Assembly: GCA_905178155.1 (NCBI GenBank)
Contig: CAJINV010000068.1
Coordinates: forward strand, 6,011-13,340
Direction: 5' to 3'
Source of the DNA: Amoebophrya sp. A120
Taxonomy: Eukaryota; Protista; Dinoflagellata
Length of the DNA stretch: 7,330 nucleotides
Under the pieces are notes generated by a model. That model made no database searches and was not told the DNA's origin. It saw only the letters and a list, made by a program, of their open reading frames with translations. The translations under genes were made by a program, and so were the position numbers. Shown in pieces: positions 1 to 7,330 of this stretch; within the stretch, counting starts at the first letter, position 1; each line of letters begins with the position of its first letter.

Positions 1-787
1 TGTCTGGCTGTCCGCACCCGGGCCCGCGCCTTGTTTGTCCGAACCTGCATGGTCCGCGACTTCCCCTCCTTTGCCCTCATCTTGCGAGGGAGCGCTCGGC
101 ACTTCAGCGCCTCCTTCTTGCTGTTTTGCTTCCTGCCCTTGCGACAACCCTAGGCACTCATCCAGGTACAAAGTGCGTTTCGTGCGGTTCATCTTCGGCC
201 AATCGCGGACAGGAGGGAATTTATACGTGTCCGCGCCGAACTCATAGACAGGCCACGTGGTGTAGCAGTTGTCACGTTGCGCGACGTTGACTATTTGCAG
301 TGGAACTGTATGCACCGGGAGTGATGCACCAACTGGCATGAAGTCCTTTTGGTGGCTCGGAAGTACTTCTTTGCGAACTTCGTATCCCAGGGCCTGCGCT
401 CCTTCTAGTGCTTCTGCCAGGCTTAGCACTATGCCGCGACCCTGCCTGAGTGGACCGCGGGCATTCGCCTGCAGCCTCTTGAAGTCAGAGAGCTCCACAC
501 CTACTTTCCGAACCCCATGGCTGTGCTGCGTGACAAGTTGCAGCAACGTGAGCGCGTTGTTGACATAAGCCAGAAATCTCCGCTCTTGTCGGCGAACTTC
601 TACCCTCAGACGTTCCATCTTCGTTTTGCACTGCGCGAACACATTCCCTGTGTTTCTCTCAACGCAGACTGTCGCTGACAAATCCGAGGACGCCCGGACC
701 TCATATACGGGCAGCCCCGGTGGCATCCTGCCTCGCCCCAAAGTGCGATCCTTGACAAAGCCCGCAACTCTAAGTGCACCCCTTTGC
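1..787 (-). CDS. Exon running off the window edge (QRGALRVAGFVKDR...KMERLRVEVRRQERRFLAYVNNALTLLQ...GPGADSQT)
   Basis: Minus frame is stop-free from 855 to base 1. It is absent from the ORF track because it has no stop in the window. The exon's 5' boundary (~782-790) is uncertain. Confidence 0.75.
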
Positions 788-3700
788 CTACCTAGCATGA
801 CAGACATGCTTTGAGTGCCCGGAAAATTTCTCATGCGCCGACTAGAAATGGCACTTCAACTGGAGTTGTTTTTTGCATTACAAATCATTTCCACTTTGAG
901 GATTTCCAACCTGAGGCTGTCATACTCGGTCTTCGCGTTTTTCATCCCGGACATATCGAAAGGAAAAACTCCCCCTCCCCATATCGAACAAAAGGCATGT
1001 TTCCGAAAATTTGCGTTGCTGATTTGACGTCACAAATCATATCTGTCTTGCAAGAAGACAAGGGCAAAAGCTTCGCCCCCATCATGGAAGCGATTTGCCA
1101 TGCTGTTGGGCCTAAAGGGCAGCCGTTTGCCATGCTGAACAATTAAACCGATACGCCCCTACATAGCCTGGGGATCTGGCCGCAGCGCATTCCTGCAATA
1201 CGAAGCTGATTTGTGTACACAAATCCAGCATGAGAAATTTCGTTTCGATATGGGGAGGGGGGATTTTTCCTCTCGATAGGACACGTCGCCGACGCTGAAC
1301 ATGATGCTGCCTTCTTCTGCACTGTTTTATGCATTGCAAAAGCATCGCACTAGTATAAATTGCAATACAAACTTCCTTAGCATGAGAAATGGAATTTGTC
1401 ATGCGGATTTGCCTTGATGAAAACATTTGTAATGCAAGACTTGCATTTATACGAGTACGATACTTTTGCACAGGATATGTTTAGGAGTGACGCGATTTCG
1501 CCTTTGATTGCTTCTGCATCCTCCGCGCGGGGTTTGCCCTTGGGACGCGACACCCCTCGTGTCCTGAGTAAAAACGTACCCACACCAGAGTCAAGATGGG
1601 GACTTTGCAACACAAGCCTAGACCTTTTGGAGGTCACGCATCACAAGTTGCAGCCCGTAGCGTAGTGCAGGTTCGCAAGGCCAGCTGCATCAGAAATCCA
1701 TCTGCTCATCCTGTTTACAGCAGTACAAATTACAAAACACGACTAAAAATGCCTCTCCTGGCGATGCGCATTACAAATGTTCCTGTCATTGCAAATCTGC
1801 ATGACAACTCTGGTGTGGGTACGTTTTTACTCAGGATACCTCGCAAGTCATACACCCTCCTTTCCGCTTCAGCGACGATCTTCGCGTAGACTTTCCCCTC
1901 TACTTTTCCCCGCTCGATCGCTTCTTTAACTAGCTTTTGCACCACCGCGACCTTTGTCTCCTTCAAACGCTGCGCGAATGCTTCTGGGGATACCAAAGTG
2001 AAAAATCCCCCCACCCCATACTCAAACTAGAGCTTCGCGATGCAGATTTGTGGTCACAAATCAGCTTTGTCATGCTAGAAGGGAAAAGATGCGGACTGTA
2101 GTGCTGGTTGGCGTGGGAAAGCCTTGCATCTTCAGCATGACAGGGGGCAGCTGGAAGTGGGAAGCAGCATGACAAATTGCCTGCAACCAAGGCCACAGGT
2201 GCGTCTCGTCTTGGCCTTCTAGCATTACAAGTCGATTTGTGTACTCAACAAATACAGCATCACAAATTTCGTTTTCGATATGGGGAGGGGGGATTTCTCC
2301 TTTTGATAGGGGAGAGGGGCTCCTCTTGCTGTAGTTTCGCGCCGGTTTCATCATGCTCCCCTTCAGCAGGTTCTTTTTCGCTCCTCTTCGTGTACGGTTC
2401 CATTTGCAGGCTGTCCGCGAAGAAAGGGATGCCGTCGATCTCAAATTGATCCATAATGGCTTTGTCTTCCGCTTCCGCGTCCGTGAGGGCAGGATTTCTT
2501 TTTTGCAGAGCATCCGCCGCAGACATAATTTTGTCAATCTTCTTCTCAAGATCTTCTTCATCTTCATCATCGCCTCCACCCTCTGCTAACGAGGACAGAG
2601 CTTCATACCGGTTGCGTATCTCCGTGGTCGGATCGAGGGACAAGCTCCGGCGTTTGTTCGCGGGCCTGCTGGTGCTTCGTCCCCGCCGTTTCGCGTGCCC
2701 CTGTCCACCCCGGGAGGTAGTTCTACTCCTTCTTGGCGCGCCGCCGCGGCCCTCATCCACCCGAGGGGACGAGGTAGCTCTACTCCTTCTTGTTCTTGGC
2801 GCATCTCCGCTGTGTGATCGTGCCCGATCGGGAGCTGCAGCAGGTTCCACAGCACCAGGACGGAGTCGCGACAGCCGCTCCGCAGCCTCCTGGCTCGGAC
2901 TTCTCTGCATCACAGAAAAGCCTGCGTGTTGTTCTCTCTTGACTTGCCTCACTTCTCCAGTAGCTTGCGCTTTCAACTTTTCCAGCGCTTTCCTTCTTTC
3001 ATCTATGGAGGCGCCGGGATCGAAATCGACAAAGTTGAAGTTGCAAGAATAAACAAATAATGGCTTAGGCTTTCCATGCATAAAATTGATGCTGATGAAG
3101 ACTTGGAAGCTGCCCAGTTTCGTTTGCATTTGCTCGTGCAAGCGGCGCATGACAAATTGAAATTTCGGCATCATCGAAATCCAGTTTGTGTGCTGTAAGG
3201 ATGACAAGACATGATCATGATCTTGTTTTGCCTTGCTACAACTTTTTTAGCAGCTCCATCTCTAACCCAAACAGGCTTACAGTCGGCCTCGCTTGTTGTT
3301 GCTGACACCCCTGCAAGACAGGCACCTTGCGCAGGAGCACCATTGCGTTTGATGATCTTATGCAGTCCATTCTTTTCCAACTTGACCTTTGTCGATTTCG
3401 GTTCTGACGCTTCCATACCCTCTTGCAACCGTGTACTGGTGGTCGGATTTGCCCTTCGCAGCAAGCTGTCCTCCGGGCCACCGGCCCCGTCCGTTTGTAA
3501 GTCAATAACTATGCGGCCAGTAGTTTTAGACATCAATGGATGGTCCTTTTCAGTGGCAGAGCTGCTCTCGAACCACGCAGGCACAGCAGTTTCCAGGGTC
3601 AGCGTTTGGGGCGAAATCCAATACTTCACGTCGCGGGCCATGCAGATCTGCTGCTTGATACGGTTGCGACGGCTTATTTGCAGCGCTGCAGCAGCTGCGC

Positions 3701-6700
3701 GTTGTGGTGCAACAACTTCCGATGTTCTACTTGTTGGTCGAGGTTGTGGCGGGGGAGCCGGCACGCTTGGACAACATTCGCCACAACCAGCCGCTCCACA
3801 AGAATGATCTTCCTTTTTCTGTCCGTACGCAGCGGCAAGCGATCCCAAACGACCAGCTCCGCCTCCAGCCGTGGCAGCTGCGCCGGGATGAAGTAGAGCC
3901 TTTTGCTTTGTCATCTCGAAGAAATCGCCATCCTTCGTAGCGCAAGAGTCCACGCTAGTACTACCTTGTGCGAAGTCATGCACTCCATAGAGCGGGCTCG
4001 CGATCTTGATCTTGTACCCTCCTAGTACGACGTCGGAGGAGGTACTACCGCCTGTAGTAACACGACGACCGGTATGGATTGTAAAAGTGTCTGGGTCTGG
4101 AAGTAGAATGCAACTTGTCATGCTAAATCTGAATCATGTAAAAAATCTGTGTTGCATGATTACCAAGAGCTGTCCACTTTTGACCTAGTCGAGAGGCAGT
4201 TTCTCATGCAGGATAGGCATGATAGAACTCTCCGAGAATCTGTCATGCTCTGTCCTACATACCAGACCTCAGGGGTCATGTACGATCTGCATGACAAGTC
4301 TGGCATTCTTCCAGAGGAGGACCCAGACATTTTTACACTTGATAACCCGTAGCTCCCCACCCAGCATGTTTTGCCGCCCAATTCGACGCCACGAAACGCA
4401 TCTGTATCAAACAAAAAAGCGCTAACCACGTTAACGGCCTTCTTACATTGCAAATATGCATGACAAATTTTTCCGAGCATGCATGCTCTGCATGACAAAT
4501 TCGGCCACGTTTTGTGACGCATTTCTGCATCACAAATTCCGTTAACGTTAGCACTTTTTTCTGTGATAATCTGGCACAGCACGCAAGGGTTCTTGCTGAC
4601 ATAGATTTTATTCTCGAAAAAAGAAGAAGTTGTTGCACTACTGACCACTGGTGGAAGTTGTTGTTGTGCTTCTTTATGAGCTGGTACAGCTTGTTTTTGG
4701 TGTAGTAGCTTCCACTCCATGAGATGAAGCAAATTCGTTTCCGCGTGTCGGCCTCTGAGAGTTTTGTCCGTCATACCCCCATATCAAATGTAAAAATGTC
4801 TGAGTCTGGAAGATTGCCAGGTTTGTCATGCACATTTTGCATGACTCCTGATGTCTGTGATGCATGCCCTAGCGTCACAGATTTTGTGAGGGCTTCCTGA
4901 TGCCTATACCGCATGACAAATGCTCTTTCCGAGTAGCAAAACTTGGACTCTCTTTGCTGCTCATGCAATACAGAATTTTTTGGAATCCAAAATCAGCATG
5001 ACAAGTTGGATTCTTCCAGACCCAGACATTTTTACATTTGATACCCCACGCTCCTGCTTGTCCACGTCCACGCGGACGAATTGAAGAGAAGCGACCTGTA
5101 TCAAATGCAAATGTGTCTGGGTCTGGAAATTTGTGATGCTGGGTGGCGTATCATGAGGAGGCCACAAGTGCTGGCGCAGCTAGCAGGACAAGTTTCTGAG
5201 CTTCTGGGTGTTCTTGCCTATTCTGCATGGCAAGCTGCGTTTCTGCGTGACAGAAGAGGAGGCTCTTGGGTAACGTGCATGACAGATGTAAGAGCCATAC
5301 CAGACAAGCATGACAAGCATCAACATGCATTCTTCCAGACCCAGAACTAAAAATATGCATTTCATAACCTTCTCCTGGATGAATCTCGCCACGAGGCTCT
5401 TTTTTGCCTTCCTGTCCTCGTCGTCCTCGGTTTCGGCTAAGAAAGCCTTCAACCCGTCCGACAAGGGTTCGACATCGAAGATTTCAGATATGACGGCGCA
5501 CTAGAAGTACCACCCTGCTCCCCCTCATTTTTTCTTTTCCACGCATGAAGAACAACAGCGAATTAATATACAAGAACAAAAGCACAAGCTGCACACGCGC
5601 AGCCTGTAACTGACAAGTTCTTCACGCGCCTCGCACAGAGGGACTGTAGTCCTAGTAGCCTTTTTGGGCTTCCGGAATAAAATCTGTCACGCAAACAATG
5701 AATAAGTACTACAAGGCAGCGCGACCGCGACCAGTGGATTTGGGAACTTGCACCATGACGAAGTCGAAGGTATGAGGGGGAGCAGGGGGACGAGTTGTGC
5801 ACTGTCATATGATAAGAGCTTAAAACCGGAAGAAGAAACGGATCAGCATCTCCACCATGATCTACTTATGCATTGCAAATATTATGTCTGCCTCCCTCTG
5901 GAAAATCTAAATTGTGGCTGTGCTGCTAAATTGATACTTAGGTACTTATGGATGACGATGAGTCTGGTGCTTTCCTTTCAACAGGTGCAGCTAAGCATGA
6001 CAAGTTCATTTGACGCCGTCTGATGCGTTGGGTATGCAACACAAGTTTTCAGAAAAGTAAACTAGACACGACATGCAAGACAAAGAACTACTCCACTTTT
6101 ATTGCAGACGACCCAGTAGTAGACGCATAAATGTATTTGCATTCGATACAGGAGCTTGACCAACAGTAGAAATAACACCTCCAACTCCGCGGCCTTGATT
6201 TGATGTATTTATTCCACGAGGACCTCTACCAGGAACAGTATCAAGAACAAAGCTTGCCTCCAAAACCGCTTTTAAACAAGCGCTGACCGCTTTTTTCGCT
6301 GTGTTCACGAACCGCTCATGTTCGTAACGATCGATCGGAACGCTTTCGAATGCTCCTGTCCGCTTTGTCGTCGCGTCGAAATCCCGCGCGTAGAAGGCGG
6401 TCTCCCGTAGCTGTTTAGTACGCCCCAGTTCTTCAAAGAAAACATCGCTCTCCTTGAAGGGTACCCGCGCTACACTCCCGGGAAGAAATACAGTCCGCAC
6501 CGGGGATGACGTGGCCATCGAGGACTTCTCTTTCTTGTAAGTACGGAACTTGGCTCTCAACAAGTCCCGACGGTCCTGCCAGGAGGGAGGGCGGGGGGGC
6601 GCGCCTGCTGAGCCTATGGACTGCAAATATTTATGTTGTCCGGGTCTGGGGTATTGTGATGTGGATTTTTGGACATTGTTTATGCGAACGCGTGGTCCTG

Positions 6701-7107
6701 AATTGGCGGCCAAGCATGTTGACCAAAAGTTTCATTTCAGTTGCTACGTGTTGCCTCTTCTGCATGGTATAATGCAAGCATCCATTCTGCATCTTCCATG
6801 ACAAAAAAAACAAAAAGGGCTTGATCGATGGGATGGAAATGGAATAATAATAAAAAGGTAAAAATACAAATAATAAACGAATGCATGTTGACAGACTTGA
6901 GAGTCATGCTCCAGCTGCTGGCACCAGAGAATTACGACTGACTACAAGCGTCCTTCTTGCACTCTTCCAAATGACCAATACATCATATTTGCAATGCGTA
7001 GAGCCGCCGGCGGTGCCTCCTCCTCGGTCCACACGCTTCTGTATCAGTAAGTTCGAGTTGAACGCGATAAGCAGTCGGCTGTTGTTGACATGATGTGGAG
7101 GGTTCAG
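1..7107 (-). CDS. Large multi-exon gene, partial at both ends (~1161 aa reconstructed from 14 exons), with a putative Zn-dependent cytidine/adenosine-deaminase-superfamily domain
   Basis: Model exons: 7107-7001, 6609-6149, 5861-5810, 5483-5367, 5093-5044, 4776-4569, 4399-4345, 4067-3418, 2998-2309, 1985-1839, 1554-1478, 1322-1279, 948-911, 787-1. They total 3483 nt with no stop. Removed lengths 391, 287, 326, 273, 267, 169, 277, 419, 323, 284, 155 and 330 nt each convert the upstream open frame into the downstream one. Junctions can slide within the 5-bp DRs, and the last intron is uncertain. Confidence 0.85.
789..931. mobile_element. Degenerate introner-like TIR element / intron
   Basis: Left arm TACCTAGCATGACAG (789) vs reverse complement of right arm GACCGAGTATGACAG (931). 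Motif variants at 795, 828 and 875. The DR is decayed (TTGCC/TTCGC). It contains the in-frame TGA at 858-856 that must be removed. Confidence 0.5.
911..948 (-). CDS. Micro-exon GMKNA(KTEYDSL)
   Basis: In frame after removal of element 954-1278. The 3' end is 911 if GT-AG intron 788-910 is used, or ~932 if the whole degenerate element is removed. Confidence 0.5.
954..1278. mobile_element. Introner/MITE family A, copy 1 (325 bp)
   Basis: ~35-bp TIR TATCGAAAGGAAAAACTCCCCCTCCCCATATCGAA vs TATCGAGAGGAAAAATCCCCCCTCCCCATATCGAA. Perfect DR GGACA at 949-953 and 1279-1283. Removing 330 nt gives FSVGDVS|GMKNA. Confidence 0.92.
1279..1322 (-). CDS. Exon SAEEGSIMFSVGDVS
   Basis: Open in the frame dictated by both flanking element excisions. 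Confidence 0.75.
1328..1477. mobile_element. Introner/MITE (150 bp)
   Basis: TIR TATGCATTGCAAAAGCATCGCACTAGTATAAA vs TATCCTGTGCAAAAGTATCGTACTCGTATAAA. Perfect DR TGTTT at 1323-1327 and 1478-1482. Removing 155 nt gives IASLLN|SAEEGS. Confidence 0.88.
1478..1554 (-). CDS. Exon VSRPKGKPRAEDAEAIKGEIASLLN
   Basis: Core of ORF 1377..1637. In frame with both neighbours after excision. Confidence 0.8.
1560..1838. mobile_element. Introner/MITE family B, copy 1 (279 bp)
   Basis: Perfect 30-bp inverted repeat 1562-1591 / 1807-1836 (TCCTGAGTAAAAACGTACCCACACCAGAGT). Perfect DR CCTCG at 1555-1559 and 1839-1843. The 284-nt removal can be read as GT-AG intron 1839->1556 and gives YDLRG|VSRPK. Confidence 0.95.
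1839..1985 (-). CDS. Exon EAFAQRLKETKVAVVQKLVKEAIERGKVEGKVYAKIVAEAERRVYDLRG
   Basis: Protein-like, helical-looking core of ORF 1730..2014. In frame with both neighbours. Confidence 0.85.
1991..2308. mobile_element. Introner/MITE family A, copy 2 (318 bp)
   Basis: TIR TACCAAAGTGAAAAATCCCCCCACCCCATA vs TATCAAAAGGAGAAATCCCCCCTCCCCATA. Perfect DR GGGGA at 1986-1990 and 2309-2313. The interior resembles 954-1278. Removing 323 nt gives EEPLSP|EAFAQ. Confidence 0.92.
2309..2998 (-). CDS. Exon: charged, low-complexity region (R/S-rich basic tract, then acidic GGGDDEDEED tract)
   Basis: Part of the 315-aa ORF 2260..3207 lying between two elements. Confidence 0.85.
2704..2810. repeat. Imperfect intra-exon tandem duplication (2 units, ~50 bp)
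   Basis: GAGGTAGTTCTACTCCTTCTTGGCGC (2714-2739) vs GAGGTAGCTCTACTCCTTCTTGTTCTTGGCGC (2771-2802), each preceded by TCCACCC. They encode APRRSRTTS / APRTRRSRATS. Confidence 0.75.
3004..3417. mobile_element. Introner/MITE (414 bp)
   Basis: ~40-47-bp TIR TATGGAGGCGCCGGGATCGAAATCGACAAAGTTGAAGTTG vs TATGGAAGCGTCAGAACCGAAATCGACAAAGGTCAAGTTG. Decayed DR TCATC/CCCTC. Removing 419 nt, or GT-AG intron 3418->3003 (416 nt), joins TRLQE to RRKALEK in frame. Confidence 0.85.
3418..4067 (-). CDS. Exon RRVTTGG...KIKIASPLYGVHDF...HSCGAAGCGECC...TTSTRLQE
   Basis: Core of the 316-aa ORF 3171..4121 between two elements. Confidence 0.85.
4073..4344. mobile_element. Introner/MITE family C, copy 1 (272 bp)
   Basis: TIR TATGGATTGTAAAAGTGTCTGGGTC vs TATCAAGTGTAAAAATGTCTGGGTC. 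DR ACCGG/ACCCG (4 of 5). Removing 277 nt gives GWGATG|RRVTT. Confidence 0.9.
4345..4399 (-). CDS. Exon RFVASNWAAKHAGWGATG
   Basis: In frame with both neighbours after excision. Confidence 0.78.
4405..4568. mobile_element. Introner/MITE (164 bp)
   Basis: TIR TATCAAACAAAAAAGCGCTAAC(CAC)GTTAACGG vs TATCACAGAAAAAAGTGCTAACGTTAACGG. Perfect DR ATCTG at 4400-4404 and 4569-4573. Removing 169 nt gives PCVLCQM|RFVAS. Confidence 0.92.
4569..4776 (-). CDS. Exon with deaminase zinc-binding motifs: GRHAETNLL...KIYVSKNPCVLC
   Basis: HAE at 4747-4739 and PCVLC at 4588-4574 with a 50-aa spacer. This is the HxE...PCxxC signature of the cytidine-deaminase-like superfamily. Confidence 0.8.
4782..5043. mobile_element. 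Introner/MITE family C, copy 2 (262 bp)
   Basis: 32-bp TIR TATCAAATGTAAAAATGTCTG(A/G)GTCTGGAAGA with one mismatch. Perfect DR CCCCA at 4777-4781 and 5044-5048. Removing 267 nt gives DKQERG|GMTDK. Confidence 0.95.
5044..5093 (-). CDS. Exon ASLQFVRVDVDKQERG
   Basis: In frame with both neighbours after excision. Confidence 0.8.
5099..5366. mobile_element. Introner/MITE family C, copy 3 (268 bp)
   Basis: TIR TATCAAATGCAAATGTG-TCTGGGTCTGGAA vs TATGAAATGCATATTTTTAGTTCTGGGTCTGGAA. DR ACCTG/ACCTT. The 273-nt removal reads as GT-AG intron 5368->5096 and gives IQEKV|ASLQF. Confidence 0.9.
5367..5483 (-). CDS. Exon IFDVEPLSDGLKAFLAETEDDEDRKAKKSLVARFIQEKV
   Basis: Frame of ORF 5180..5464 extended upstream to the element boundary. 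Confidence 0.82.
5489..5809. mobile_element. Introner/MITE (321 bp)
   Basis: TIR TATGACGGCGCAC...CCCTGCTCCCCCTCAT vs TATGACAGTGCAC...CCCTGCTCCCCCTCAT, with a perfect 16-bp inner stem 5513-5528 / 5772-5787. Decayed DR TCAGA/TGATA. Removing 326 nt is in frame, and so is GT-AG intron 5802->5501 (302 nt). Confidence 0.8.
5810..5861 (-). CDS. Exon DHGGDADPFLLPVLSSY
   Basis: Open in the frame required by both flanking excisions. Confidence 0.65.
5867..6148. mobile_element. Diverged introner/MITE, family-C-like (282 bp)
   Basis: TIR TATGCATTGCAAATA-TTATG vs TATCGAATGCAAATACATTTATG. GCATGACAA at 5995. The DR is essentially lost (CTACT/CAGGA). Removing 287 or 284 nt joins ORF 6099..6713 to the next exon in frame. 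Confidence 0.62.
6149..6609 (-). CDS. Exon AGAPPRPPSWQDRRDLLRAKF...ERFVNTAKKAVSACLKAVLE...VGQAP
   Basis: Core of the 204-aa ORF 6099..6713 between two elements. Confidence 0.85.
6615..7000. mobile_element. Introner/MITE, family-C-like (386 bp)
   Basis: TIR TATGGACTGCAAATAT vs TACGCATTGCAAATAT. Perfect DR GAGCC at 6610-6614 and 7001-7005. The 391-nt removal can be read as GC-AG intron 7004->6614 and gives GTAGGS|AGAPP. Confidence 0.88.
7001..7107 (-). CDS. Exon LNPPHHVNNSRLLIAFNSNLLIQKRVDRGGGTAGGS
   Basis: Core of ORF 6904..7131. In frame with the downstream exon after excision. Confidence 0.8.
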
Positions 7108-7330
7108 TATCCTGAGTAAAAACGTACCCACACCAGAGTCAAGATGGGAAATCTGCTAGACAAATCGGCAAGCTTTGGGAGTTGTGCATGACAAGTTTCC
7201 GTCTGTAGTATAGTGGTGCATAGCAAGGCAAGCCGCATGAGAAAGCCAATTTCTCATCCTGTTTACAGCATTACAAATGCCAAATCACGATTGGAAATAC
7301 CTCTCATGAGGATGCGCATTACAAATGTTC
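7108..7330. mobile_element. Introner/MITE family B, copy 2 (truncated by window edge)
   Basis: Collinear with 1560-1782 at offset 5548, and the first 41 nt match at 40 positions. The preceding 5-mer TTCAG (7103-7107) is the candidate DR. Confidence 0.92.

Follow-up and report, generated by a model that had tools for sequence, protein, structure and literature searches.

What are the short inverted-repeat elements that crowd a 7,330-nt stretch of the genome of the dinoflagellate Amoebophrya sp. A120 (contig CAJINV010000068.1, positions 6,011–13,340; hereafter the window), and what moves them? The first-pass annotation described them as several unrelated families with terminal inverted repeats (TIRs), mobilized in trans by one type of transposase, from a variant or undescribed cut-and-paste family. 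We found that they interrupt the coding exons of a single minus-strand gene, a point missed by that annotation, and that in contigs that are likely mRNA they are spliced introns, each removed together with 5 extra bases. They are very probably introners of the A120 type (Farhat et al. 2021; PMC7789003), gathered in one gene.

An inverted-repeat scan of the window recovered the 13 TIR pairs and the one open end reported before. With the first pair redrawn as explained below, the window contains 12 complete TIR elements (E2–E13) of 150–414 nt and two incomplete ones, E1′ and E14 (table 1). At the coordinates of the first-pass annotation, 25 of 27 ends do begin with TAT or TAC, all 25 followed by C or G, but the ends at 789 and 931 were wrong; the corrected tally of 26 ends is 23 TAT, two TAC, and one TGT. 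Base pairing between the two ends involves 13–20 of the leading 20 bases in each of the 12 complete elements. The trinucleotide AAA occupies positions 11–13 in 19 of the 26 ends, being missing from those of E6, E11, and E1′, versus 14 of the 283 other TAY sites of the window, and the strict motif TAT-N7-AAA is present in 16 ends. A 9-mer, GCAT[GTC]A[CG]AA, chosen by eye from the window and afterwards checked in related loci, occurs 31 times in the 3,817 nt of elements, although not in E11 and E13, and never in the 3,513 nt outside. As E7 and E9 are also 75% identical over 270 nt, and E4 and E14 similarly alike (table 1), the TIR families are not unrelated. Exact direct repeats (DRs) of 5 nt, the same seven as first listed, flank seven of the 12 complete elements; four others match at three or four of the five positions and E12 at one. 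Altogether 50 of the 60 flanking letters match over E2–E13, and 100,000 random draws gave at most two exact repeats and 32 matching letters. No complete element is flanked by a 6-nt repeat. The longest stop-free stretch within any element spans 43–90 amino acids (aa). These elements are non-autonomous and resemble miniature inverted-repeat transposable elements (MITEs).

Each segment of DNA between the elements can be read on the minus strand without a stop and has a G+C content of 0.42–0.62, versus 0.35–0.50 in the elements. Removal of each element with 2, 5, or 8 additional nucleotides creates an open run of 937–963 aa, and any other length leaves at most 455 aa. With the final borders, element plus 5 nt, 891 codons (2,677 nt) are read without a stop across 12 joints. 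A phase enumeration (432 open paths on the minus strand and none on the plus strand, of 4,782,969) used the wrong ends of the first element and is therefore left out of account.

Of 14 listed public runs, with no holder recorded as RNA, six (X1, X3, X6–X8, and X12) were aligned to the window. Four of these, X3, X6, X7, and X8, are contigs from two samples of one study and are probably RNA. In these RNA-like contigs, all nine joints observed (E2–E6 and E9–E12) skip exactly the element plus 5 nt; a single contig bridges E12, E11, E10, and E9, and another E4, E3, and E2. The host exons match without a difference in the listed pieces. Conversely, the DNA-like run X1 keeps the elements in place over 2280–4099 and 5774–7132, also with 0 differences. 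One RNA-like contig (X3 record 5) departs from the window sequence at 7107 and continues differently, so that E14 is probably removed from transcripts too. The raw RNA run X12, which bears the same species label, provided only 118 partial reads, all on repeat ends, and is uninformative on the host gene. Small shares in plankton metagenomes were not taken as evidence of habitat.

These data bear on two other explanations. The library type of X3, X6, X7, and X8 is not on record, and the joined contigs might be DNA of an empty allele or of a sister strain devoid of the insertions, since an empty site would likewise miss the element plus 5 nt. We regard this as very improbable, because these same runs hold many copies of the element families, the listed exon pieces do not differ, and the letters at the E6 joint combine parts of the two DR copies with neither copy whole, which fits splicing inside the repeats and not an empty allele; at least nine elements of differing families and ages would also have to be absent together. 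Hardly credible, in turn, is the view of the first-pass annotation that the window is an ordinary MITE cluster in non-coding DNA, due to an undescribed cut-and-paste superfamily and without splicing. It would account for the TIRs, the uniform 5-bp target site duplication (TSD), the high copy number, and the lack of coding capacity, but not for spacers that form one 891-codon frame or for nine joints that remove the elements precisely. Nor is the pattern undescribed, as ends of the form TAT-N7-AAA (PMC7789003) and 5-bp TSDs with TA/TA termini (Gozashti et al. 2025; PMC12130899) have been published for A120.

Table 1. Elements, host exons, and other features of the window (positions in the 7,330-nt stretch; runs supporting each joint in parentheses)
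Feature	Position	Strand	Length (nt)	Flanking direct repeat	Splice joint	Remarks
Low-copy sequence with open frame	1..771	minus				Within or next to the long first intron; open reading frame 834..1, 278 aa, open at window edge
E1′	772..924	minus				First half of a ~305-nt element, E6-type TIR; true terminus TAT at 924; break at 771/772
E2	954..1278	minus	325	GGACA, exact	948>1279 skips 330 (X3)	Spliced
E3	1328..1477	minus	150	TGTTT, exact	1322>1478 skips 155 (X3)	Spliced
E4	1560..1838	minus	279	CCTCG, exact	1554>1839 skips 284 (X3, X8)	Spliced; one end TGT
E5	1991..2308	minus	318	GGGGA, exact	1985>2309 skips 323 (X7, X8)	Spliced
E6	3004..3417	minus	414	3/5	2999>3419 skips 419 (X3, X7)	Spliced
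E7	4073..4344	minus	272	4/5		E9 family; intron status from reading frame only
E8	4405..4568	minus	164	ATCTG, exact		Intron status from reading frame only
E9	4782..5043	minus	262	CCCCA, exact	4776>5044 skips 267	Spliced; high-copy family; fold z −10.4
E10	5099..5366	minus	268	4/5	5093>5367 skips 273 (X3)	Spliced
E11	5489..5809	minus	321	3/5	5483>5810 skips 326 (X3, X6)	Spliced
E12	5867..6148	minus	282	Decayed, 1/5	5861>6149 skips 287 (X3, X6, X8)	Spliced; fold z −0.33
E13	6615..7000	minus	386	GAGCC, exact		Intron status from reading frame only; fold z −0.4
E14 introner	7108..7330	minus				Cut by right window edge; E4 family, 79% over 224 nt
Host gene	926..7103	minus	2677			Length is that of the 13 exons; stop-free over 891 codons, with both ends of the frame open
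Host exons 1–7	7002-7103, 6150-6610, 5811-5862, 5368-5484, 5045-5094, 4570-4777, 4346-4400	minus				
Host exons 8–13	3419-4068, 2310-2999, 1840-1986, 1479-1555, 1280-1323, 926-949	minus				
Exon with HAE...PCxxC	4571..4780	minus				Candidate zinc-dependent deaminase domain of host protein

According to the text of Farhat et al. (PMC7789003), A120 possesses 29,850 introner copies of about 240 nt in 1954 families. Their ends consist of TAT, seven variable bases, and at least three A, their inverted repeats measure 8–20 nt, and their DRs 3–5 nt, with 5 bp in the example figure. The window elements share with them the TAT-N7-AAA ends, the short DR over the exon/intron border, the division into many families, a length around 240 nt, the mostly non-GT-AG borders, the lack of an internal transposase, and a host gene of no known function (PMC7789003); terminal inverted repeats, splicing, and repetition complete the features of A120-type introners found here. 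The system is therefore already known, and our analysis is a rediscovery of it. Two aspects differ: that text gives DRs of 3–5 nt and a border position that is variable or unknown, whereas every intact DR of the window measures 5 nt and a single register suits the nine joints. The 9-mer did not turn up in the main text of PMC7789003.

Gozashti et al. (PMC12130899) report tens of introners in single A120 genes and list their family 38 as "5-bp TSD, TA/TA Termini", Ginger-like, with integrase-like open reading frames (ORFs). The window elements agree with this family in TSD, termini, and number per gene. By its description, family 38 is, however, about 810 nt long with ORFs resembling Copia/Gypsy, whereas the window elements are short and non-coding; no homology to the integrase-like proteins of long terminal repeat elements was found in them or in the ORF at 834..1. 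Since some A120 introners are assigned elsewhere, among them a Mutator family whose TSDs measure 8–9 bp (PMC12130899), one enzyme cannot explain all introners of the genome, only the TAT class.

The first-pass annotation had also named two DNA transposon superfamilies, and its account of both agrees with the literature: IS3EU/GingerRoot elements have TA..TA termini and usually 6-bp TSDs (PMC10045372), and Transib elements have 5-bp TSDs and CAC ends, in the form of a CACAATG heptamer with a spaced nonamer (PMC1131882). The window resembles the former in its termini (25 of 26 ends) and the latter in its TSD. As none of the 12 window elements or 236 related pairs has a 6-bp TSD and none of the 26 window ends starts with CAC, membership in either superfamily fails; no DDE transposase ORF was seen in the comparison with IS3EU. 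The nonconventional introns of euglenids and the introns of Fritillaria borealis are likewise MITE-like, with TIRs, TSDs, and non-GT-AG borders (PMC11282704). They differ in their end motifs, CAG/CTG in euglenids and AG-AC/AG-AT in Fritillaria, and the euglenid CAG at +4 to +6 with CTG at −8 to −6 is not present at the window intron starts. Further context is provided by PMC12005148 and PMC4455052.

To which extent do these rules hold beyond the window? With the E9 TIR as the query, 132 loci (385,841 nt) were retrieved, and those listed all belong to one assembly. Among 482 inverted-repeat pairs with a flanking repeat of at least 4 nt, selected with no terminal motif required, TA/TA termini with a 5-bp repeat form the commonest class (142); 236 pairs had no repeat, and these are mostly internal or cross-element. 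Exact 5-bp repeats flank 152 of 236 non-nested TA..TA pairs, 123 of these 152 repeats differ, and no pair among the 236 has a repeat of 6 or 7 bp. The mixture of TSD lengths that the first-pass annotation took to speak against a single enzyme type was not observed among the 132 loci. The 175 elements whose repeats match at four or more of five positions start with TAT at 342 of 350 ends, and 171 contain the 9-mer. The TAT-N7-AAA motif is present at 299 of the 350 ends, mostly from the E9 family used as the query: 108 of the 175 elements are of this family, and the other ~65 represent the unbiased part. Greedy clustering of the TIRs gave 13 groups, two of which are probably artefacts (about 11 real). 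Near-full-length relatives were found in these loci for eight of the 14 window elements, with E9 copies up to 97% identical, and none for E11, E12, and E13.

One of these insertions illustrates the frame rule outside the host gene. An E9-family element (L045:2758-3025) splits an ABCG-type transporter gene, and its removal with 5 nt restores a 654-aa frame. Only this length, and not 3, 4, 6, or 7 nt, unites in one frame what we take to be the Walker A, signature, and Walker B motifs.

Some related elements are longer. At L030:3001-3972, a 972-nt E9-type element with an exact 5-bp repeat has a unique interior of ~650 nt without a frame above 90 aa. At L027:3001-4031, an E4-family element (about 3329-3608) is nested in a 1,031-nt E9-type element, also flanked by an exact 5-bp repeat. 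Most long TA..TA pairs are the ends of two neighboring elements, and none of the four examined holds a transposase-sized frame. Of the 49 frames of at least 300 aa in the related loci, 42 were scanned against Pfam; three had matches, none to a transposase. Viral contigs gave no match to two TIR patterns. In 18 elements of known orientation, reverse copies of the 9-mer lie near the 5′ fifth and the middle, and forward copies towards the 3′ end. Judged from sequence, this inward-symmetrical arrangement is as subterminal binding sites would show.

On these grounds we propose that a DDE/integrase-type transposase encoded elsewhere recognizes the shared TAT-N7-AAA end, probably with help from the GCAT[GTC]A[CG]AA copies, and would insert the element by a 5-nt staggered cut, hence the 5-bp duplication. 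In the pre-mRNA, the TIRs would pair and draw the ends together for a modified spliceosome that may not require GT-AG; U1 was not detected in A25 or A120 (PMC7789003). The cuts would most likely take a single base ahead of the 5′ TAT and another four beyond the 3′ ATA. As 1 + 4 bases equal one TSD, the original codons would be restored, insertions would be nearly neutral, and 14 could accumulate within 7 kb of a single gene. The proposal of the first-pass annotation that one transposase type acts in trans fits the non-autonomous elements and the uniform TSD and termini over ~11 TIR groups, and the step in trans itself is what we infer. Hairpin-guided, U1-independent splicing stands likewise as a deduction from the features of the elements. 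The broader idea that all TAT-ended families form one system, with a single Ginger/IS3EU-related integrase that recognizes TAT-N7-AAA and the 9-mer boxes and makes a 5-nt stagger, and with U1-less splicing at a fixed −1/+4 register counted from the transposon ends in place of GT-AG, frame-neutral in either orientation, is tentative, in our judgment slightly closer to doubtful than to probable.

For the spreading step, a route through RNA or reverse splicing, a copy-and-paste mode in which the hairpin serves both splicing and re-insertion, deserves consideration. Farhat et al. found no transposase in A120 and favor copy and paste (PMC7789003), and the 42 long frames of the related loci revealed none either. 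We nevertheless judge it unlikely. An integrase-type enzyme that cuts DNA with a stagger leaves a 5-bp duplication of free sequence together with symmetrical ends, and the strict 5-bp duplication and symmetrical TAT ends seen here are of this kind. An A120 TIR family with the same ends and integrase-like ORFs is on record (PMC12130899).

The nine joints permit a closer look at the splice borders. We denote a register by the bases removed before the 5′ TAT and after the 3′ end; perfect repeats let the cut slide. The E6 joint allows only −1/+4 or −2/+3, and those of E11 and E12 only 0/+5 or −1/+4, which leaves −1/+4 as the only register that suits every joint. In no register can GT..AG borders be formed at seven of the nine joints; they are possible for E4 and E10, and for three of the 18 oriented elements of the related loci. 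In these 18, the base before TAT is G in six and the acceptor position reads AG in one; there is therefore no sign of selection for canonical splice sites. All nine rows of published A120 splice pairs begin N-T, as −1/+4 predicts, which is not counted as independent support because the choice of the aligner within the repeat could produce it. As for folding, euglenid introns form an RNA hairpin (PMC11282704), and 10 of the 12 complete window elements fold better than shuffled sequences (z −2.7 to −10.1). The TIRs of the other two, E12 and E13, are decayed; E12 is nonetheless removed precisely, and a splice signal besides the long hairpin seems to be kept in old introners.

Several points weigh against this interpretation. 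The RNA nature of X3, X6, X7, and X8, contigs of one study, is a guess, and no contig of these runs bridges E7, E8, or E13. The assignment to A120 introners is made by features. E12, although spliced, and E13 fold no better than shuffled sequences (table 1), so that old copies must carry more of a splice signal than the hairpin. The −1/+4 register depends on three decayed repeats and is a lead only, because independent random choices produce a shared register in 146 of 1,296 combinations (0.11). A six-frame test of related elements found 37 of 46 open after removal with 5 nt versus 29–32 of 46 out of frame, and is too permissive. No transposase was found in the window elements, the ORF at 834..1, or the 42 long frames, and the text of PMC7789003 disputes a general transposase-mediated spread in A120.

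The left part of the window raises a question of its own. Over 782–925, E1′ is 72–76% identical to ~305-nt elements with an E6-type TIR in three related loci (L009, L024, and L069). The other limit of this similarity lies at about 782, and the loose end at 772. The true end of E1′ is the TAT at 924, because an RNA-like contig (X3 record 1) passes the end drawn at 931 and matches as far as 925, before continuing with 214 nt absent from the window, and the homology to the relatives stops at 924. The element first drawn at 789–931, whose left end is internal, was rejected on this evidence and because it breaks the reading frame. A canonical GT..AG intron at this place was dropped too, as no RNA-like contig enters 1–788; the missing RNA-like coverage of 1–735 is not taken as a sign of silence. 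E1′ thus starts at 924, and its intron likely exceeds 924 nt.

Beyond E1′, the sequence at 1–771 has a few diverged copies in DNA, including one 91% identical over 459–697. Searches of Pfam, PHROGs, PDB, Atlas, and 1.84 billion representatives brought no match to its ORF (834..1), and a single-sequence structure model was unusable (predicted local distance difference test, pLDDT, 33.7). A nested insertion, for which L027 offers a precedent, is the simplest reading of this frame, and the junction at 772, spanned by none of the listed DNA contigs, is possibly an assembly join. A different reading makes the frame part of the autonomous partner, of which the short E6-type elements would be internal deletions: it has a low copy number in DNA, sits behind an intact TAT end within a long intron, and meets the short family near its midpoint. 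With an ORF lacking any database match or usable model, with nested insertions known in such introners, and with a possible assembly join at 772, we consider this quite improbable.

Of the six pieces of the host protein that were scanned, none reached the Pfam cut-offs. The motif HAE...PCxxC occurs in one exon, with Pfam matches to OTT_1508_deam (E = 0.0085) and APOBEC_N (E = 0.024), both below the curated cut-offs, and no more than a lead from Atlas; from these sequence similarities, the 891-codon protein may contain a zinc-dependent deaminase domain. At 2690–2790, a short imperfect duplication lies within an Arg/Ser/Gly-rich coding stretch of the same gene.

To the known introner system we therefore make modest additions, namely a strict 5-bp duplication, a shared 9-mer, and a possible −1/+4 register. 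None of the three was found in the literature texts, although figures may hold them, and a search that covered texts other than figures, two supplements of Gozashti et al., and subscription papers returned no later paper fixing the register or the mobilizer. For the question of intron origin, the Amoebophrya introners are an extreme published case. A duplication that is strictly 5 bp, and not 3–5 bp, points to one enzyme class, and the shared 9-mer is a candidate binding site for the mobilizing enzyme. Where repeats have decayed, RNA data already available could determine the splice register. A fixed −1/+4 register, if true, would be the first exact border rule for the non-canonical introns of Amoebophrya.

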